From the NCBI GenBank assembly GCA_042408445.1, contig JBHORC010000024.1, positions 44,092 to 108,091 on the forward strand: 64,000 nt of DNA. Direction: 5' to 3'. A model generated the notes under the pieces. It was given only the letters and a program-made list of their open reading frames with translations. It had not been told where the DNA came from and made no database searches. Within the stretch, counting starts at the first letter, position 1. Every line of letters begins with the position of its first letter. Shown piece by piece: positions 2,110-60,695 of the stretch. This DNA comes from Chloroflexota bacterium. Its GTDB lineage: Bacteria; Chloroflexota; Limnocylindria; Limnocylindrales; CSP1-4. The position numbers and the translations under genes are program-made.

Positions 2110-3568
2110 CGCCGGGCGGGGCGGCGGCCGTCGTGACCGCCGCCCGGCCCGTCGCCGACGTCGGCGTCTGGACGACGAGCGCCTGGCCGAGCGACCAGAG
2201 GGTGAGGGTCGTGAGCGCGACCATGATCATCGCGAGCGGGATCTGGCGGCGGCGATGGTCCGACGTTGCCCCACGCGCCGCACCGGATTGCCGCGCCGCC
2301 ACGACATGGCCCGCCCACGCGCCCAGCATGTGGCCGCCGACGACCGCGGCCAGCTGGACGGTCCAGACGAGCCCGGGCGGCAGCCAGCTCGACGACGGCT
2401 CGTAGAAGGCCCAGCCAAAGTTGCCGAGATCCGAGCCGAGCTGGAGCGGATCGGCGAGCGCGACGACGATGCGCTGGCCGTCGATCAGGACATACGTGAA
2501 GTAGTGGGCCACGAGGTAGCCGGCCGCGATCGGGATCAGGCCGGCGGCCGTGGCGGGCACGCCCACCAGCCGCGACACGATCAGCGCGGCGAGCACGAGC
2601 AGGCCGAGGAAGCCGAACAGCTGGAGCGTCTTGATCGGGACGGCGGGCGCCCCGAAGATCTCGAACCAGGGCTGGGTCTGCGAGAGTCCGTCGAAGAGGA
2701 TCGATGCCGTCCCGATCCCGACGAGGATCACGTCCTCGCGATGCCAGCCGCCGAGCAGCAGCGCCGACGCGAACGGCCGTCGCGCGACCCGGCCCTCCGC
2801 CGGATCGCCGACGAGGCCGTACGGCGCGAGGCGACCGAGCAGGCCGAACCAGACGCTGAACGTCTCGCCGTCGCGGCGCCAGGCGTCACGACCGAACTGG
2901 GCCATCATCGCGAGCGTGAAGGCGGTGTAGCCGACCATCACGATGAAGAGCGAGCGTGGCCCGGCTCCGTTCCCGACGAGCTCGAGCCAGACGAAGAAGA
3001 CGAGACCGATGATCGCGGGCCACCGGCCGAGCCGCGGCGGGTAGTCGGCCTGCGCCCAGCCTTCGATGCCGAGCCGGTCCAGGACGGCCGCCCCGAGGTC
3101 GTGCAGGGTCGTGAACGGATCCAGCCAGTGCCAGACGGGGCCGACGAACGCGGACAGCATCGCCATCCCGACCCAGCCGTAGACCCACAGGAAGAGTGTC
3201 GTGACGTCCCCGGCGCTCGACCCGCCGACGATTCCCTGGGCGACGACCCAGATCCAGCCGATGAGGCCGATCGCCCGCAGGAGGAGGCGGAGCCAGCGAG
3301 GAGGGACGCGTCCCGCCGGCAGGACGGGCGGCTCGGCGCGAACGTCGGCGACGAGCAGGAACGCGAACGACAACCCGACGGCGATCGCCGCGCCGGCCAG
3401 ATAGACGATCAGCGGCAGCCGACTCTGATAGGTGTTGCTGAGCGAGTGGGCGAGGACGCCGACCGGCGCAGCGAACAGGACCGCGCCGACGACCGGAGCC
3501 GCCAGTGCGATCCGCCGCTGGCGACCCATCGGGCTCACCGCGCTCGTCCCGGGCCGCTCAGGTGGCAC
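2093..3568 (-). CDS. Polytopic integral membrane protein, putative CopD-like partner of CopC
   Basis: More than 10 hydrophobic segments; immediately downstream of and overlapping the CopC gene (operon context). GTG at 3568 or ATG at 3529 as start. Confidence 0.4.
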   Translation of the reverse strand: MPPERPGTSAVSPMGRQRRIALAAPVVGAVLFAAPVGVLAHSLSNTYQSRLPLIVYLAGAAIAVGLSFAFLLVADVRAEPPVLPAGRVPPRWLRLLLRAIGLIGWIWVVAQGIVGGSSAGDVTTLFLWVYGWVGMAMLSAFVGPVWHWLDPFTTLHDLGAAVLDRLGIEGWAQADYPPRLGRWPAIIGLVFFVWLELVGNGAGPRSLFIVMVGYTAFTLAMMAQFGRDAWRRDGETFSVWFGLLGRLAPYGLVGDPAEGRVARRPFASALLLGGWHREDVILVGIGTASILFDGLSQTQPWFEIFGAPAVPIKTLQLFGFLGLLVLAALIVSRLVGVPATAAGLIPIAAGYLVAHYFTYVLIDGQRIVVALADPLQLGSDLGNFGWAFYEPSSSWLPPGLVWTVQLAAVVGGHMLGAWAGHVVAARQSGAARGATSDHRRRQIPLAMIMVALTTLTLWSLGQALVVQTPTSATGRAAVTTAAAPPGVNPGR

Positions 3569-4175
3569 GCCGGCCGCGGCCCCGGAGGAGCCACAGGCCG
3601 AGCAGGGCGAGCGCGATCAGCACGACGACGATCGGGATGACCGCATCGCTCGAGGAGGCCGCTGTCCCGGTCCCACCGGACGGTGCCGGCGACGCCGCCT
3701 CCGAAGCCACAGCCGAGGGCACGGCGCTCGCGTCGAGGCTGGCCGAGGCCGCCGGCGACGGCGCCACCGAGCCTGCAGCCGATGGCGCCGCGCTCGCAGC
3801 CGTGACGGTGAACGTCGTCGTGCCCCGATCGATGTCGCCGTCGTCCGCCGACTTCGAGGTCCAGCGGACCGTGTACGCGCCCGCGGTCAGGACCGGGACC
3901 GTCAGCCGAAGCGTCTTCGCGTCCGCTGCGTCCACGGTTCCGCCCTGGGCCACGACGGCCCCACCTCCCGACACGAGGGCGAGAGAGGTTCCGGACTGGG
4001 ACAGCGTCTCGGTGAAGGTCGCAACGATCTCGGTCGGCGGTGGGCCGCTCGACTTGTCCTTCGGGGTCATCGTTGCGAGCTCTGCGTGCGCCGACGCGAC
4101 GCCGGGCGCGAGCAGGATGGACAGGGTGGCGAACGCCACGGCGGCGACGGATCGCCGCGGTCGTCGGGGGGTCAT
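3558..4175 (-). CDS. copC: CopC-family copper-binding protein with C-terminal membrane anchor
   Basis: Signal peptide MTPRRPRRSVAAVAFATLSILLAPGVASA followed by HAELATMTP. CopC beta-sandwich signature YTVRWTSKSADDGDIDRGTTTFTV. C-terminal TM segment. Start refined to internal ATG (4175) of ORF 3558..4355. Confidence 0.65.
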   Translation of the reverse strand: MTPRRPRRSVAAVAFATLSILLAPGVASAHAELATMTPKDKSSGPPPTEIVATFTETLSQSGTSLALVSGGGAVVAQGGTVDAADAKTLRLTVPVLTAGAYTVRWTSKSADDGDIDRGTTTFTVTAASAAPSAAGSVAPSPAASASLDASAVPSAVASEAASPAPSGGTGTAASSSDAVIPIVVVLIALALLGLWLLRGRGRRAT

Positions 4176-4315
4176 GCCGCCGAGTGTACGTCGGCCCCGA
4201 TTCTGAGAACGTGGAGCGAAGCGGCGGGACCGAGGAAGCGGCCGGGGCGAGCGGGAGAGCCGCCCCGGCCGTCCTCGCGGGTCAAGCGGAGGAGTGGTCG
4301 TCGCGCGGCGACGCG

Positions 4316-4621
4316 CTACGCGGCGCGGGGAAGGGGAGTGGCATCGTCGGGGCACGGCGAATTGCGCGCGTCACTCGCCGTGCTCGAGGCGTTCGCCGGG
4401 ACAGGGTGAGCGGCGGACGGCGCGCCCACGAGGGTTCGGGACGGCCCGGCCACCGCGACGCCGAAGGCCACGAGGAGGAGCCCGAGGCGTCCGCGAGCGC
4501 CGGCCGCCAGGCCCGCCGCGCCGCTCGAGCGTCGCGCTCGCCCGGCGCGGAGCACGGTCGCATCGTCCTCGAGCCGCGCGATGTGATCGGTCACGAGGAA
4601 CCGCTGCATCTCGTTCATGTT
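4316..4621 (-). CDS. Small hypothetical single-TM protein (approx. 101 aa)
   Basis: Strong SD GGAGGA 13 nt upstream of ATG (MNEMQRFLV...). High GC3. One hydrophobic segment LGLLLVAFGVAVAG. Upstream of copC on the same strand. Confidence 0.3.
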   Translation of the reverse strand, partial: NMNEMQRFLVTDHIARLEDDATVLRAGRARRSSGAAGLAAGARGRLGLLLVAFGVAVAGPSRTLVGAPSAAHPVPANASSTASDARNSPCPDDATPLPRAA

Positions 4622-4664
4622 GGCCACCCGTTCCTCCTGCCTGTTCTTCCAGGGTCTGTCTGAT

Positions 4665-4682
4665 GTTCGATGGATATCTAAC
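4665..4682. promoter_or_regulatory. AT-rich 18-bp palindrome GTTCGATGGATATCTAAC (candidate operator) upstream of the small-ORF/copC/copD genes
   Basis: Inverted repeat GTTcGAT-N4-ATCTAAC. Near-identical to the site at 5895. Approx. 40 bp upstream of ATG 4621. Confidence 0.5.
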
Positions 4683-4742
4683 TCGGAGGGCTGAAGATGG
4701 GCCACGGCGCTCGCCGCGGCCCTGAGCCCGACTCGTCGGCTC

Positions 4743-9530: not shown

Positions 9531-9572
9531 CGACCGGCCGAACCAACGGCTGCGGCCGCGACGAATGGAACC

Positions 9573-10265
9573 GTGGACGATGGACGAGCGACCGATCGCC
9601 TGTTCCTCGCCCGCGGTTCCGGCGTCCGTCGCGGCTTGGAACGCCGCAGCGCGGCATGCTCGCTCCGAGCGACGAGGGGTGTACTCACGACCACAGCAGC
9701 GCCGTCCGGAATCACTGAGCTCGACGACCAGGCCGCGGTGGACGCCGTCCTCGCCGGGAATCGGGACGCGTTTCGCGGCCTCGTGGATCGCGAGTCAGCG
9801 GCTGTCATCCGCGCCTGCCACCGCGTCCTCGGCGACATCCACGAGGCCGAGGATGCAGCCCAGGAGGCATTCGTGACTGCGTTCCGCAGTCTCGCCAGCT
9901 GGCGCGGCGACGGACCCTTCGGGGCGTGGCTCGCGCGCATCGCCGTGCGCATCGCGATCCGCCGGGCGCAGCGACGTCGCGACGTCACGTGGATCGATCC
10001 CGCCGACCCCGCGCGCGGCCGAGACATCGCCGGTGGCGCTGATCCCGCCGCCATCTCGATCCTCGCGGAACGCGCGGCGGACGTTCGTGCCGCCGTCGCG
10101 CGACTCGACGAGCCCTATCGCGAGACGGTCGCGCTGCGCTTCTTCGGCGAGTTGAGCCTCGATGAGATCGCCGTGGAGACCGGGCGGCCGCTGGGCACCG
10201 TCAAGACCCATCTCCGCCGGGGCCTGCTTCGGCTCCGGACCGGGATCGATGGAGGGACGGCGTGA
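9573..10265 (+). CDS. ECF (sigma-70 family, group 4) RNA polymerase sigma factor
   Basis: Region 2/4 motifs (DAAQEAFVTAFRSL, LDEIAVETGRPLGTVKTHLRRG). Start uncertain (GTG 9573 or TTG 9636). Confidence 0.8.
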   Translation: MDDGRATDRLFLARGSGVRRGLERRSAACSLRATRGVLTTTAAPSGITELDDQAAVDAVLAGNRDAFRGLVDRESAAVIRACHRVLGDIHEAEDAAQEAFVTAFRSLASWRGDGPFGAWLARIAVRIAIRRAQRRRDVTWIDPADPARGRDIAGGADPAAISILAERAADVRAAVARLDEPYRETVALRFFGELSLDEIAVETGRPLGTVKTHLRRGLLRLRTGIDGGTA

Positions 10266-11035
10266 ACCTCCGACCGTCCCCTGCTCCCGATGCCGCGGAG
10301 GAGGAGCGCCTCGTCCGTGAGGCGACGCTCGATCTCGAGACCCTGATCACCGGCACGTCCGTCGTGCCTTCGACGGACTTCACGGATCGGGTGATGGCGG
10401 CGATTGCCGAGGAGCCGCTGCCACAGCCGGTCCGGGCGTTCGGCCTTGCGCTCGCCGCGGGACGGCTGCGGGCCGCAGGATCCGCCGTCGGGGACGCGTG
10501 GCGGGTCGCGACGAGCGGCTTTGCGCCGGCCGGTGTCCGCGCCCAGGCCTTCGCCCTCGTGCTCGTCGTCCTGGTCGCATCGGTCGCGGTGACGGGCGGT
10601 GCCGCGGTCGGGGCTGCGAGGTTCCTCGCCGGCCCGGCGAGCCCGCCGGCGCCCACCACGCCGCTGCCGAGCGTGCTCCCCAGCCCCAGCCCCGTGCCGT
10701 CCTCCTCGCCGGATCCGAGCGCGACGGTCGACCCCTCGCCGAGTCCGTCGCCGAGCGACACCGCCGAGCCCACGAGCAGCGACGACCACGGTGGCGGCAG
10801 CGGGACGGGGCGGCCCGCGACGCCGAGGCCGACCGGGACGGATGACCACGGTGGAGGCTCGGGCTCAGGAGGCTCGGGCTCCGGCGGTGGCGACGACAGC
10901 GGGGGAGGCTCGGGTTCGGGTTCGGGCTCCGGCTCCGGCTCGGGCTCGCACGACGGCGGAACACCCGAGCCGGAAGCGCCCGACCACAGTTCGGGCGGTT
11001 CAGGCGGTTCGGGCGGCGGCGGGAGCGACGGCTGA
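10262..11035 (+). CDS. Membrane-anchored anti-sigma factor with disordered Pro/Ser/Gly/Asp/His-rich extracytoplasmic tail
   Basis: ATGA overlap with sigma gene. Single TM AFALVLVVLVASVAVTGGAAVGAA. Low-complexity C-terminal half (DDHGGGSG repeats). Confidence 0.6.
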   Translation: MNLRPSPAPDAAEEERLVREATLDLETLITGTSVVPSTDFTDRVMAAIAEEPLPQPVRAFGLALAAGRLRAAGSAVGDAWRVATSGFAPAGVRAQAFALVLVVLVASVAVTGGAAVGAARFLAGPASPPAPTTPLPSVLPSPSPVPSSSPDPSATVDPSPSPSPSDTAEPTSSDDHGGGSGTGRPATPRPTGTDDHGGGSGSGGSGSGGGDDSGGGSGSGSGSGSGSGSHDGGTPEPEAPDHSSGGSGGSGGGGSDG

Positions 11036-11106
11036 GCGGTCCCGCGGTGCTGCCGCGGCGTAGGGCGCTCCCGGCCCTCGACGACGGTGCGCGGTAGTCT
11101 CTCGCG

Positions 11107-11814
11107 GTGATCGTCGTCATCGGGAATCCGCGCGGCAGGTCCGGACCGGAGGGGATCGTGGCAGTCGGTGCTGCCGTGGCCGTCGCTCGGGCGGCGGCCC
11201 TCGCCGGCGGCGTGGTCCAGCTCGTCGGCAAGGTGGGCGACGGGCGTGACGGCGACGCGATCCTCCTGTCCGTCGCGTCGAGCGGCGTCGGTCACATCGC
11301 GATGCTCCGCGATGGATCGCCCGTGGATCTCGAGATGGCAGCGGCGCCGGCAGGCGGCGCCGGTGACGACGACGCCGGCCGCGATGATGGCGCCGCGGAC
11401 TCGATCCTCGATCGGGACGGGCCGGACAACGAGGGCAGCGGACGGGAGGCGGCCGAGGCGAGCGCTCCGGCGCTGGACGCCGGTGATCTCTCGCTCGCGC
11501 TCCGCTATCTGCCGGACTACCGCGTCGTCGTGATCGCGACACCGCTCGAGGCATCAGCCGAGACGGCCGTCGTCGAGGCCGCGCGCTGGGCAGGCGCAGC
11601 GATGATCGTCGTGTCCGCGAACGGAACGCCGCCGCCGACGGACGTGCCCGAGGATGCGACGGTCTTCGAGGCGCCGCCACACGACGAGGACGCCGCGTTC
11701 GCGGCCATGGTCGGCCGTTACGCGGCCGCCCTGGACGCCGGGCTCGCGCCGGCAGACGCGTTCCGGAATGCCTCGGCCAGCGCCGGCGCCTCGAGGAGTC
11801 CGCGCGACAGCTGA
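11107..11814 (+). CDS. PfkB (ribokinase-fold)-like protein, short and lacking the GAGD anion-hole motif (possibly non-catalytic)
   Basis: N-terminal GxxAVAxARxxALAGG..VGKVGDG resembles the PfkB glycine-rich sheet. C-terminal DAAFAAMVG at the position of DTTGAGD. Confidence 0.3.
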   Translation: MIVVIGNPRGRSGPEGIVAVGAAVAVARAAALAGGVVQLVGKVGDGRDGDAILLSVASSGVGHIAMLRDGSPVDLEMAAAPAGGAGDDDAGRDDGAADSILDRDGPDNEGSGREAAEASAPALDAGDLSLALRYLPDYRVVVIATPLEASAETAVVEAARWAGAAMIVVSANGTPPPTDVPEDATVFEAPPHDEDAAFAAMVGRYAAALDAGLAPADAFRNASASAGASRSPRDS

Positions 11815-19090: not shown

Positions 19091-19624
<534 letters not shown>

Positions 19625-19647
19625 GCCGAGAGCCAGAGGAGCTAGCG

Positions 19648-45038: not shown

Positions 45039-45068
45039 TTGACATGTGACTCGACGGTCACATAACAT
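45039..45068 (+). promoter_or_regulatory. Putative promoter with operator palindrome: TTGACA, TGTGAC-tcgacg-GTCACA, TAACAT
   Basis: -35 TTGACA and -10-like TAACAT separated by 18 nt containing a perfect 6-6-6 inverted repeat. ATG of the ArsR-AHSA1 gene 7 nt downstream (near-leaderless). Confidence 0.5.
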
Positions 45069-45074
45069 CGCGAC

Positions 45075-45863
45075 GTGGACGAGATGGCGGCGGTCTTCCG
45101 GGCGCTGGGCGATCCCAGCCGGCGGCTGCTCCTCGATCGGCTGTTCGATCGCGACGGACAGACGCTCGGCGAGCTGGCGGCGCATCTGCCCGGCATGACG
45201 CGCTTCGGCGTGATGCGCCATCTCGATGTCCTCGAGGAAGCCGGCCTGATCGAGACGCGTCGGGTCGGCCGCGAGAAGCACCACTTCCTGAACCCCGTCC
45301 CGATCCGGCTCGTCGCCGATCGCTGGATCGGCAAGTTCGCCGAGCCGGTGGTCGGGCGGATGGCCGCGATCAAGCACGACCTGGAGGCACCCTCGATGCT
45401 CGCACCGGACCATGTCTACTCGGTGATCATCCGCGCGACGCCCGACCGGATCTGGCGGGCGATCACGGACGGGGTCGAAACCGAGCGCTACTACTACGGC
45501 ACGCGGGTCGACTCGGACTGGTCGCCGGGCGGCCGCGTCATCTACACGTATCCGGATGGTTCGGTCGCGGCCGACGGCGAGGTCGTCGACATCGAGCCAG
45601 GCCGCTCCGTGACGATGACCTTCCACGCCCGGTGGAGCCCGGAGATCGAAGCCGAGGGTCCCGTCCGGATGACGTGGGCGGTCGAGCCTGCTGGCCCGGG
45701 TGTCTCGAAGCTCACGGTCGTGACGTCCGGGATGCGCGAAGGCGGCGTCGTCCAGACGGAGTTCGGCGGCGGAATCGTCTTCATCGTCTCGGGGCTGAAG
45801 ACGTACGTCGAGACGGGGGAGGCGATGGCGGCCGAGCCGGACGCGGTGGCCACGGGAAGCTGA
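45075..45863 (+). CDS. ArsR-family HTH fused to SRPBCC/AHSA1 (activator of Hsp90 ATPase-like) domain regulator
   Basis: N-terminal FRALGDPSRRLLLDRL...LAAHLPGMTRFGVMRHLDVLEEAGLI. C-terminal AHSA1-like approx. 150 aa. Confidence 0.75.
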   Translation: MDEMAAVFRALGDPSRRLLLDRLFDRDGQTLGELAAHLPGMTRFGVMRHLDVLEEAGLIETRRVGREKHHFLNPVPIRLVADRWIGKFAEPVVGRMAAIKHDLEAPSMLAPDHVYSVIIRATPDRIWRAITDGVETERYYYGTRVDSDWSPGGRVIYTYPDGSVAADGEVVDIEPGRSVTMTFHARWSPEIEAEGPVRMTWAVEPAGPGVSKLTVVTSGMREGGVVQTEFGGGIVFIVSGLKTYVETGEAMAAEPDAVATGS

Positions 45864-45896
45864 TCGCGATCGCGGGCGTTTGCGCTTGCCCCGCCC

Positions 45897-46059
45897 TGTT
45901 GGCTCGTGACCAACAAGCGTCGAACGGGCATCGCGGCTGCCGGGGGAATCACGTCGCCGCCCGATGCTAGTTGGCGCGAGACCAACGGACGTCGACCCGA
46001 GAGCCTGTCGGCGTGATCCCGGCGGCCGACGATCGATCGTTGTTGGTTGTGGCCCAACA
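45897..46059. repeat. Three palindromic sites (T)GTTGG-N7-CCAAC(A) at exact 72-bp spacing within a 540-bp non-coding region
   Basis: TGTTGGctcgtgaCCAACA (45897), GTTGGcgcgagaCCAAC (45970), TGTTGGttgtggcCCAACA (46041). Centres 72 bp apart. Flanking sequence weakly similar (CGTCGA core). Confidence 0.55.
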
Positions 46060-46166
46060 CCGGCCCGCTCGCGAGTCGCGACCGACGAGCAGCGGGTGCT
46101 CGTTCCGTCGGCCGGCCCGCGGACTCGACCTGACATCGGCTCTCCCGGCGGACGCGACGAGCGGTC

Positions 46167-46255
46167 CCTGCTCGCACCGTCCGCCGAGTGGCCTTGCCGC
46201 CGCCGGGACGAGCCGTGCCTGCTCTCATCGTCCGCCGAGTGGCCTTGCGGCCGCC
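46167..46255. repeat. Imperfect tandem direct repeat, approx. 50-bp period (CTGCTCnCAnCGTCCGCCGAGTGGCCTTGCsGCCGCCG)
   Basis: Two approx. 38-bp near-identical cores 50 bp apart, in the same non-coding region. Confidence 0.5.
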
Positions 46256-46399
46256 GATTCCGACGGCTCGAGCGACGCAACGAGCACGGGCCGCTCACGC
46301 CCCGCGCCGCCGTGCGGCGCCGAGCGGTAGGGACCCCCGCAGACACGAAGCGACCGGGCCTGCTCGGCAGGCCCGGTCGCAACGCTGCCGCAGCGGCGA

Positions 46400-46738
46400 C
46401 TACATGATCCCGATGACGTGGCCCTCGGGATCGGCGAACAGCGCGATCGTCGTCTGCGGCGCGACCTCGGTGAGCGGCATCAGGACGCGGCCGCCCTTCG
46501 AAGCGACCTTGTCGAGGACGCCCTGCGGGTCGTCGCTGTGCACGTAGAACGTGACGCCCGCCGGCTGGCCTTCCGGCGCGCCGCCGATCCCGCCGGTGAT
46601 TCCGTCGCCCTGGCGGTACATGCCGTACCCGCCCGGGTTGTTCGTGTCGATGCTCCAGCCGAAGACATCCCGGAAGAACTCCTGGAGCTTCGCCCCGTCC
46701 TTGCCGGTGACCTCGACGTGTACGACCTGAGCTCCCAT
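46400..46738 (-). CDS. VOC-family (glyoxalase/bleomycin-resistance fold) protein
   Basis: 112 aa, beta-alpha-beta-beta-beta pattern with HVEVTGKD / FYVHSDDPQG. Confidence 0.7.
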   Translation of the reverse strand: MGAQVVHVEVTGKDGAKLQEFFRDVFGWSIDTNNPGGYGMYRQGDGITGGIGGAPEGQPAGVTFYVHSDDPQGVLDKVASKGGRVLMPLTEVAPQTTIALFADPEGHVIGIM

Positions 46739-59342: not shown

Positions 59343-60242
59343 TCAGTCATCGTGGTCGTCATCGGATTCGTCCTCCTCCACGTCCTCGTCGAGCGAACGT
59401 CCGGTATGGGTCATGAACACGTCGTGGAGCGTTGCCGGCTTGCCGGTGCGAGCGGCTTCGGCGGCGATCAGGCCGGCCGGCGTGTCCTCCACCACGACCC
59501 GGCCACCGGCCAGGACGAGGATCGAGTCACAGAGCCGCTCGGCCTCGTCGAGGTCGTGCGTCGTGAGGACGATCGAGGCGTCGTGCGTCTCCCGTAGCTC
59601 CTCGATGAAGGTCTGGACGTCCAGCTTCGATCGCGGATCGAGGCCCGTCGTCGGCTCGTCGAGGAGCAGGAGGGACGGGCTCGTCAGCAGCGCCCGCGCG
59701 ATCGCGACCTTCTGCTGCATGCCCCGGCTCATCTGCACGATCGGCCGGCCGACGCGCTTCTCGCCGATGCCGAGGCGGCCGAGGATCTCGATCGCATCCC
59801 GCCGGGCAACCGCCGCATCGAGCCCGTAGAGACGGGCTGCGAAGAGGAGGTTCTCCATCGGGCTGAGCTTCTTGAAGAACGCGGCGTCCACGCTGACCCG
59901 GTTGATCAGGCGCTTGACCTGCATCTCGTCGCGCTCGATGTCGTGCCCGAAGACGGAGACCCGGCCCTGGTCGAGGGTCAGGAGACCCGAGACGAGGCGG
60001 ATCAGCGTCGACTTGCCGGAGCCGTTGGCGCCGAGGATCCCGACGATGTCGCCCCGCTCGAGGCGAAGCGACACGTCCTGGATCGCGACGACGGGCTTGC
60101 GCTTCCGTCCGACGACGAACCGCTTCGTGACGCCCTCCACGAGGAGCGCCGGCACGGTGGTGTCGATGGTGAGGTCACCGTCGACGGAGCCGTCGAAGCG
60201 TCGGCGAGCGATCTTCTGTTGTCCGAGAACGGTGGCGGTCAC
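59343..60242 (-). CDS. ABC transporter ATP-binding protein
   Basis: Walker A GANGSGKST, signature MSRGMQQK, Walker B LLLLDEPTTGLD, H-loop TTHD. Start refined to GTG approx. 60242. Confidence 0.85.
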   Translation of the reverse strand: MTATVLGQQKIARRRFDGSVDGDLTIDTTVPALLVEGVTKRFVVGRKRKPVVAIQDVSLRLERGDIVGILGANGSGKSTLIRLVSGLLTLDQGRVSVFGHDIERDEMQVKRLINRVSVDAAFFKKLSPMENLLFAARLYGLDAAVARRDAIEILGRLGIGEKRVGRPIVQMSRGMQQKVAIARALLTSPSLLLLDEPTTGLDPRSKLDVQTFIEELRETHDASIVLTTHDLDEAERLCDSILVLAGGRVVVEDTPAGLIAAEAARTGKPATLHDVFMTHTGRSLDEDVEEDESDDDHDD

Positions 60243-60402
60243 TGGTGGGCTCCTGGTTGCTGGTGAGGTGTGGCGGTCGAAACCGCGGATTCGAGTGGGG
60301 GTGGGGTCCGGGGCGGGAATCAAACGAGCCGCGGACCTGATCGATGCGGGCGGTGCATCGGGTGGGCTCGCGGCTCGGGTGACGCCTCCGGTCGAGGCAT
60401 CA

Positions 60403-60433
60403 AAAAAGCCGGGGGCCCATCTGGCCCACGGCT
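60403..60433 (-). terminator. Rho-independent terminator on the minus strand (10-bp GC stem, 5-nt loop, T6)
   Basis: Minus strand reads GCCGTGGGCC-agatg-GGCCCCCGGC-TTTTTT. A T6 run is very rare in this genome. Lies between the GNAT gene and the ABC operon. Confidence 0.55.
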
Positions 60434-60695
60434 CGTGGTTCGCACTTCCGGCGGTTCGACCGCCTCAGGCTAGCTCGAGATGGGCACAGTCCTCCCGCCG
60501 CTGTCGGCGCCATCGGGCGCGGCCGTCGGGCGGAAGCGGAGGAACGTCATGCTGTTCATTCGGCGTGCCTCCCTGGGCTGCGCAAGTCGAGTGGCGGGCG
60601 GTCGCCGCGCCGGCCGGGAGTCTACGCGCGCCGGCGCGCCGCGGTCAACCCCGTCGAATGACGGTGTCGCCGGCGCGACAGATGACGTAGGCATG

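Follow-up and report, generated by a model that had tools for sequence, protein, structure and literature searches.

A phased array of palindromes with lineage-specific arms between convergent ArsR-AHSA1 and VOC genes in Limnocylindria-like soil Chloroflexota

Regularly spaced palindromes in bacterial DNA

REP and REPIN sequences are imperfect extragenic palindromes of ~20-60 bp, dispersed in tens to hundreds of copies per genome, and they go together with a RAYT gene in the same genome, which encodes their cognate Y1 transposase and often has REPs on its flanks. The mycobacterial MIRUs are minisatellites found at ~40 loci inside operons, where they overlap small ORFs. In the sopC centromere of F, 12 units of 43 bp each contain an inverted repeat that is bound by a SopB dimer, and in systems of this type the sequence of the site co-evolves with the binding protein. 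CRISPR arrays are composed of near-identical direct repeats of 23-47 bp and of unique spacers that often match mobile elements, and the attC sites of integrons are hairpins of 57-141 bp bounded by the R''/R' boxes (RYYYAAC ... GTTRRRY). Evenly spaced tandem arrays of REPs, with spacings that include 72 bp and also 112 bp and with mixed REP groups (GI/GIII), were described in Pseudomonas fluorescens SBW25 (PMC3116915).

The locus described here is a gap between two convergent genes in a stretch of 64,000 nucleotides, called the window in what follows, and the array that it contains appears closest in build to the palindromic-unit clusters of the REP/BIME type, such as the GI/GIII arrays of SBW25 (PMC3116915). 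Both consist of short, imperfect, extragenic palindromes, typically located after genes, with a genome-specific palindrome sequence, the possibility of more than one palindrome family per array, even spacing (72 and 112 bp in SBW25) and a copy number that varies between strains. Unlike these clusters, the present array occurs at one locus only within 64 kb, its units are old and diverged copies rather than near-identical ones, their length is conserved from lineage to lineage, and a GTAG-type head motif is not seen. With the MIRUs (VNTRs) the array shares intergenic tandem units of 40-100 bp, long and short unit classes and a copy number that differs between close relatives; it differs from them in lying between convergent genes, in being non-coding and in having units defined by the palindrome at their centre, with arms that change together. 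Tandem units of fixed length with one short palindrome each, read in sopC by a dimer, are also common to both the F centromere and the array, but the present locus is chromosomal and metabolic, has no partition genes nearby and is built of 72-bp units with diverged spacers, so that the parallel is functional only and membership in that class is not proposed. Finally, CRISPR arrays likewise have regularly interspaced short palindromic repeats, spacers of constant length and a lineage-specific repeat sequence, whereas in the present array the repeats are non-identical, with only the arms conserved, and a 51-bp unit variant occurs.

The gap and the array that fills it

The gap is 536 bp long and lies 3' of both neighbours, since the regulator gene (ArsR/HTH_20 with AHSA1) and the Glyoxalase/VOC gene are convergent, as stated in the initial annotation (Table 1; a window coordinate equals the gap coordinate plus 45863). 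The flanking genes have a GC3 of ~0.9 and a GC2 of ~0.45, a coding signature that recurs in none of the frames of the gap, which is in agreement with its earlier description as non-coding. The GC3 within the gap also ruled out a repetitive protein, which could be considered given that 72 and 51 are multiples of 3. An exact match to the VOC protein is encoded on a Logan contig whose sequence is 100% identical to the window.

It had been reported that GTTGG-N7-CCAAC occurs three times with centres exactly 72 bp apart, and it was verified that these copies, which start at 45898, 45970 and 46042, are the only sites in the 64-kb window. Considering that shuffled sequences gave a mean of 0.02 matches and that 0 of 100 shuffles reached three, chance is excluded. 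The extended form TGTTGG-N7-CCAACA holds for the first and third copies, which have perfect 6-bp arms, while the arms of the second measure 5 bp. The tandem repeat reported next to them is real, although its period is 51 bp and not 50 (Tandem Repeats Finder), and the repeated stretch is not limited to ~38 bp, the whole 51 bp being repeated with 84% identity.

A second palindrome family, ACGAGC-N7-GCTCGT, had been missed; its four members (B1 to B4 in Table 1) are spaced by 72, 51 and 72 bp. The 51-bp repeat consists of two ACGAGC-type units, B2 and B3, which makes it a part of the same array as the palindromes, and all 536 bp of the gap belong to one tandem array whose units measure ~72 bp or, in the short variant, 51 bp. 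In gap coordinates, the seven palindromes start at 34, 106, 178, 222, 294, 345 and 417, with successive spacings of 72, 72, 44, 72, 51 and 72 bp, and a hairpin follows at 487-517. At the centre of each unit lies a DNA palindrome in which arms of 5-6 bp enclose 7 bp, and CGACG..NN / NN..CGTCG usually stand on its two sides. The palindrome cores of 17-19 bp can be extended to imperfect palindromes of ~33-41 bp, all within the non-coding gap, and thus correspond to the short extragenic palindromes (about 20-60 bp) of the REP/REPIN type; B2 is the core of an imperfect palindrome with 17-nt arms (46146-46186). The two unit lengths differ by 21 bp (72 minus 51), or ~two helical turns, and the 51-bp duplication that produced B2 and B3 is recent. 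A second copy of either array type was not found in the 64-kb window.

The array ends at the GC-rich hairpin beside the VOC stop codon, which is the sole constant feature of the gap across all relatives. This hairpin (46350-46380) is likely a bidirectional terminator; its 14-bp GC stem, which keeps its position in all relatives, has no clear T tract, and a consensus terminator scan makes no call there.

Table 1. Features of the ArsR-AHSA1/VOC locus in the window (window coordinates) and of orthologous loci (positions or spacings)
Feature	Position	Strand	Remarks
ArsR-type HTH (HTH_20) + AHSA1/SRPBCC regulator gene	45075-45863	+	upstream of array
VOC/glyoxalase-family gene	46400-46738	-	convergent with regulator gene
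Regulator's operator-like palindrome TGTGAC-N7-GTCACA	45045..45063		outside array
Palindrome A1, TGTTGG-ctcgtga-CCAACA	45897..45915		perfect 6-bp arms; then AG-CGTCG-A
Palindrome A2, aGTTGG-cgcgaga-CCAACg	45969..45987		perfect 5-bp arms; 72 bp past A1
Palindrome A3, TGTTGG-ttgtggc-CCAACA	46041..46059		72 bp past A2; GATCGATCGT directly before
Palindrome B1, ACGAGC-agcgggt-GCTCGT	46085..46103		7-bp stem possible; 44 bp past A3
Palindrome B2, ACGAGC-ggtccct-GCTCGc	46157..46175		72 bp past B1
Palindrome B3, ACGAGC-cgtgcct-GCTCtc	46208..46226		degenerate; 51 bp past B2
Palindrome B4, ACGAGC-acgggcc-GCTCac	46280..46298		4 inner pairs; 72 bp past B3
51-bp tandem duplication	46156..46256		2.0 copies, 90% match; units B2 + B3, short form of the unit, 21 bp below 72
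GC-rich hairpin GCGACCGGGCCTGC-tcg-GCAGGCCCGGTCGC	46350..46380		14-bp stem, adjoins VOC stop codon
L132, TGGTCC arms	195 / 267 / 339
L144, TGGTCC arms	1322 / 1394 / 1466
L138, TGGTCC arms			spacings 71 and 72
L139, TGGTCC arms			spacing 72
L135, TGTTGT arms			spacing 72
L149, TGTTG arms			spacing 72
Gap of 70-87 bp			L137, L141, L142, L174, L190
Gap of 124 bp			L217 (89% regulator identity)
Gap of 210-437 bp			many loci
Gap of 536 bp			this window

Distribution of the array among relatives

Orthologous ArsR-AHSA1/VOC loci were fetched from many Limnocylindria-like metagenome contigs, mostly short. Regulator homologues are abundant in soil metagenomes, and the few named ones belong to "Candidatus Limnocylindrales" (Chloroflexota). 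In the relatives, the gene order is conserved both on the regulator side (XdhC, NTP-transferase, methyltransferase, OsmC, regulator) and on the VOC side (VOC followed by the CO-dehydrogenase-type FAD, Fe-S and Mo subunits), which indicates that the gap is not the edge or scar of an island. The length of the gap is extremely variable, ranging from 70 to 536 bp, and even the minimal gaps of 70-87 bp have the terminator hairpin, together with a CGWCG-AAGG motif and a small palindrome.

Judging from these contigs, a clade of Limnocylindria-like soil Chloroflexota has inherited the array at this one locus, with a copy number from none to seven. As is the case for minisatellites (VNTRs), this number varies among close relatives, with seven units in the window and none in some others, and the loci of regulator homologues with <70% identity had no such array. 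L220, whose VOC and regulator are 97% and 87% identical to those of the window, keeps degenerate B-type units but lacks the TGTTGG sub-array, and L217 lacks the array; the absence from such close relatives indicates that any function is dispensable. The array itself would thus be dispensable to its carriers and would change by duplication and deletion of whole units.

The difference between the VOC and regulator identities of L220 also suggests that a breakpoint of recombination lies between the two genes, within the gap filled by repeats (window 45075-46738 versus L220 152-1615). In L162 (2651-3053), a complete terminator-like hairpin is found mid-gap (gap 103-133) and is followed by four more TGTCCC-type units, an arrangement that looks like a duplicated hairpin-plus-terminator module. 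The 510-bp 'gap' of L156 (1626-2136) has its last 110-175 bp in common with the much shorter gaps of L155, L157, L159 and L161, and this sub-clade looks as if L156 carried a small extra gene of which truncated remnants persist in the others.

Conserved spacing and concerted change of the arms

The comparison with orthologous gaps demonstrated that several lineages keep the 72-bp palindrome spacing at the same locus (Table 1). Since these relatives carry an array at the same spot, with the same spacing and other palindrome sequences, the array is a real and unusual repeat element. Under an objective rule, same-family neighbours were 72 bp apart in 13 of 23 cases, although these intervals are not independent owing to common descent, and a 51-bp step was also observed between degenerate copies, chosen by eye, in L162 and L125. 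Spacers of exactly 53 bp were present in 11 units from six lineages. The distinct spacings showed helical periodicity, with R = 0.68 at 10.2 bp and a post hoc p of ~0.01. Between loci, the arm types were TGTTGG, TGTTGT, TGGTCC, TGTCCC and also CTGCGC. Perfect TG-N4-N7-N4'-CA palindromes were almost confined to the gap in the window and the fetched loci, all of which represent the same neighbourhood. Additionally, in a pattern scan of genome contigs for pairs of GTTGG-N7-CCAAC 50-60 bp apart, none of the matches listed resembled the gap; they included tandem tRNA genes, matched in their T arms, and repeat families unrelated to it.

Shared flanks show a common descent of the units, since GATCGATCGT precedes the last palindrome in L138 and L139, as it does A3 in the window, and CAACAAGCGTCGA is common to the window and L135. 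A covariance model of the 43-nt palindrome unit, which holds too little information to discriminate, placed only A1-A3 above background. A MAFFT alignment of 37 units set the B-type units out of register, and in-register counts were made by script.

Within a locus, 10-12 of the 12 arm bases are identical between units, whereas the spacers are only 0.31-0.47 identical in register (chance, 30%). In the best cross-lineage unit pairs, by contrast, spacer identity rises to 0.51-0.58 (best pair p = 1.5e-5) and only 2-6 of 12 arm bases agree. Therefore, the arms change in concert at each locus, decoupled from the rest of the unit. These changes are Watson-Crick symmetric, with 40 two-sided versus 2 one-sided (G-U type), and the observed covariation score was reached by 0 of 500 shuffles. 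Complementarity is strong only 4-8 bases from the palindrome centre (0.85-0.92) and becomes weak one base further in, at the outer positions of the 7-bp centre (0.49 versus 0.34 expected), paired percentages that are biased because the palindromes were partly picked for their pairing. The CGACG/CGTCG flanks are conserved as sequence, with pairing weakly above expectation, and no positionally conserved second helix was found in the 53-bp spacers of the 11 units from six lineages.

The pair of loci L138 and L139 allowed the rates to be compared. Identity between their gaps is 82.5%, with 74 substitutions and about 5 gapped positions. Changes affect 4 of 48 arm positions and 9 of 28 centre positions; for the gap overall the value is 17.5%, above the 7-10% recorded at third codon positions in the flanking genes. 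Considering that the gap is fast-evolving and indel-tolerant, the unchanged length of the 53-bp spacers stands out.

The adjacent regulator and its operator

The operator-like palindrome of the regulator gene (TGTGAC-N7-GTCACA) sits between a -35 element, TTGACA (45039), and the -10 element and is perfectly conserved in all fetched relatives. Lying within the promoter stretch 45039-45068, it presumably serves this ArsR-AHSA1 family as the operator for autoregulation. Its geometry, 6-N7-6 with outer TG..CA, is that of the downstream palindromes, with a different half-site, and this likeness is what favours the view that the array palindromes are auxiliary operators, of low affinity or engaged in looping, for the adjacent ArsR-AHSA1 dimer. 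Such a role is very improbable, as the recognition helix MTRFGVMRHLDVLE and the operator remain invariant while the arms switch between TGTTGG, TGGTCC, TGTCCC and CTGCGC, the inner four bases of the palindromes are unlike those of the operator, and the same protein is present in lineages without an array. Because neither the recognition helix nor the operator varies, the adjacent regulator is an unlikely reader of the array. The array palindromes were also rejected as ArsR-AHSA1 operator sites, as they lack the TGTGAC-N7-GTCACA half-site and their inner bases vary between lineages.

Interpretation of the array

Strict symmetry, free centres, arms that are uniform within a locus and a fixed distance between centres lead us to read the locus as a phased array that acts at the level of DNA. 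A phased array of binding sites had been among the candidates of the initial annotation and, taken as candidate sites, it gives the best fit to the comparative data, which are sequence data only and come mostly from short metagenome contigs, and in which the 72-bp spacing is kept in several lineages despite spacer divergence, arm changes are symmetric and each locus has uniform arms. A probability of about 0.4 is assigned to the reading of the locus as a vertically inherited, phased, DNA-level array of palindromic units, with a REP/BIME-like build, that would offer symmetric sites to a putative factor. The palindromes would then act either as symmetric recognition sites or as extrudable hairpins, and they would be read by a putative trans-acting factor, lineage-specific in its specificity and probably other than the adjacent ArsR-AHSA1 regulator; their helical register would be kept fixed in the zone of termination of the two convergent transcription units. 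The same pattern would be expected if the palindromes formed DNA hairpins that an enzyme recognised by structure and sequence. Points against the DNA-level reading are the absence of the array from close relatives, the two arm families in one gap, which would need two specificities, and the slight excess of pairing at the outer centre positions, for which the formation of hairpins is no worse an explanation than the binding of a protein. A more specific proposal, rather doubtful at present, is that the array represents a previously undescribed chromosomal element of phase-locked symmetric sites (three per 163-bp module), whose arms would co-evolve with a putative fast-diverging dimeric DNA-binding protein or hairpin-specific enzyme, the two together building a nucleoprotein complex of higher order at the meeting point of the convergent transcription units, for instance, a roadblock or insulator.

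The main rival of the DNA-level array is a true REP/REPIN family, that is, a dispersed genome-specific repeat whose single-stranded DNA hairpins are moved by a RAYT (IS200/IS605-like) transposase, the gap being a preferred site of landing or expansion. This is possible, and it would account for short imperfect palindromes in an extragenic position between convergent genes, for arms whose sequence is specific to the lineage, for two arm families in one gap, for a presence and copy number that differ among relatives and for the recent duplication of whole units; DNA hairpins also predict a strictly Watson-Crick symmetry, and ordered arrays with even spacings of 72 and 112 bp, in which two REP groups are mixed, have a precedent (PMC3116915). 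However, although the REP/MITE-like element suggested in the initial annotation does resemble REP/BIME clusters in its architecture, it has no other copy in the 64-kb window, where neither array type recurs, and no other perfect TG-N4-N7-N4-CA cluster was present in the fetched neighbourhoods, all of which sample the same locus. Moreover, cross-lineage units are homologous in register despite their different arms, which argues for evolution in place and not for repeated insertion, and old, diverged spacers stay exactly 53 bp long, which mobility does not predict. A neutral minisatellite is a somewhat doubtful explanation, according to which a ~72-bp module of small hairpin plus terminator was tandemly duplicated in a permissive gap, DNA-level processes such as template switching in quasi-palindromes and short-tract conversion between neighbouring units keeping the palindromes perfect and alike without any function. 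It agrees with the content of the minimal 70-87-bp gaps (palindrome, CGWCG-AAGG and terminator hairpin), the full internal terminator-like hairpin of L162 followed by more units, the recent 51-bp duplication, the loss of the array in many relatives and an evolution of the gap faster than that of the flanking third codon positions (17.5% versus 7-10%). Nevertheless, about a dozen spacers far more diverged than the L138/L139 gap keep the 72-bp interval (one of them being 71 bp), three arm base pairs have changed identically in every unit of a locus, and arm divergence is half of the gap average in L138/L139. Duplication without function accounts for the minimal gaps, the L162 terminator and the frequent losses but leaves the conserved length and the concerted arms without an explanation.

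A structured RNA, also suggested previously, is unlikely. It would be the 3' UTR of the regulator mRNA or an sRNA whose hairpins stabilise the 3' end, strengthen termination or bind a protein, and the location of the array between the regulator stop codon and the shared hairpin, the folding of the whole gap (z = -3.5 versus shuffles), the hairpins possible in each spacer and the ability of the three-palindrome segment to form one long hairpin all favour it. On the other hand, the Rfam search recommended with the initial annotation gave zero gathering-score hits in the 64-kb window and, at E up to 10, only chance-level matches in 45700-46500 (E of at least 0.36 and at most 21 bits), a region in which ARAGORN also found no tRNA. 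Furthermore, the folding of the three-palindrome segment reaches only z = -1.8 and -2.3, a positionally conserved spacer helix is missing, one-sided changes number 2 versus 40 two-sided, and RNA hairpins explain neither the exact 72-nt spacing nor the single stem sequence of each locus. Two further readings can hardly be entertained, one being a scar of recombination at the border of an island and the other a CRISPR array in decay. The former had been proposed on account of an inserted island seen to the left, yet the genes from XdhC/NTP-transferase, methyltransferase and OsmC to the regulator, and those from VOC to the CO-dehydrogenase-type subunits, stand in the same order on both sides of 70-90-bp gaps in relatives. 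The latter is brought to mind by regularly spaced short palindromes with constant-length spacers, but the repeats share only 10-12 arm bases, with differing centres and flanks, the supposed spacers show in-register homology from unit to unit and across lineages, with no match to phages or plasmids, and the 51-bp units would leave an 18-bp spacer; neither near-identical repeats of 23-47 bp nor unique spacers are found in the gap.

Other known structures were also considered and rejected. CCAAC...GTTGG fits the attC boxes of integrons loosely, and other lineages have GGACCA...TGGTCC or GGGACA...TGTCCC in orthologous units, so that AAC/GTT is not conserved. A tRNA-like array was suggested by the 72-nt period, the 5-bp stem and the 7-nt T-arm-like loop, but ARAGORN and the Rfam tRNA model returned nothing and the loops of other lineages are unlike T loops. 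Tandem long hairpins bounded by CCAAC...GTTGG were discarded as the true unit since no spacer helix is conserved and the second palindrome of L146 has swapped arms, with which pairing between palindromes fails.

If the spacing and the concerted arm changes that support the phased DNA-level array do reflect a reader protein, the locus would be a natural record of the co-evolution of site and factor, and it would point to a new way of organising a convergent-gene junction in an abundant, uncultured soil lineage. If, instead, the array is one cluster of a REP-type family, such elements would be extended to Limnocylindria-like Chloroflexota, and the array would also be useful as a strain-typing marker. 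Under either reading, a conserved length with free sequence is a clear and testable signature.

Other observations in the window and in unrelated genomes

The gap had also been described as far longer than the other intergenic gaps here, which holds only in part, since at least one other long stretch, 60225-60695 (471 bp), between two minus-strand genes, has no coding signal. Inverted repeats that are long but imperfect occur in it several times (e.g., 60269-60289 with 60447-60467), and palindromes of the type found in the ArsR-AHSA1/VOC gap are absent. In two stretches of >1 kb, 3527-4742 and 9531-11187, a crude GC3 gene finder placed zero genes, and sliding windows gave weak or shifting frame signals, which may reflect atypical genes, frameshifts or overlapping ORFs. 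ARAGORN reported a 'tRNA-???' with a four-base anticodon (ccgg) at 19543-19625 on the minus strand, inside or beside coding signal, which is probably a false call. Finally, a repeat with a 68-bp period and the palindrome TGTTGGCCGAAGGCCAACA was observed on many contigs of a Ca. Anammoximicrobium MAG (L001, L013, L034, L060, L064, L086, L116 and L119), several times at a contig end; it is a high-copy planctomycete family unrelated to the ArsR-AHSA1/VOC locus.
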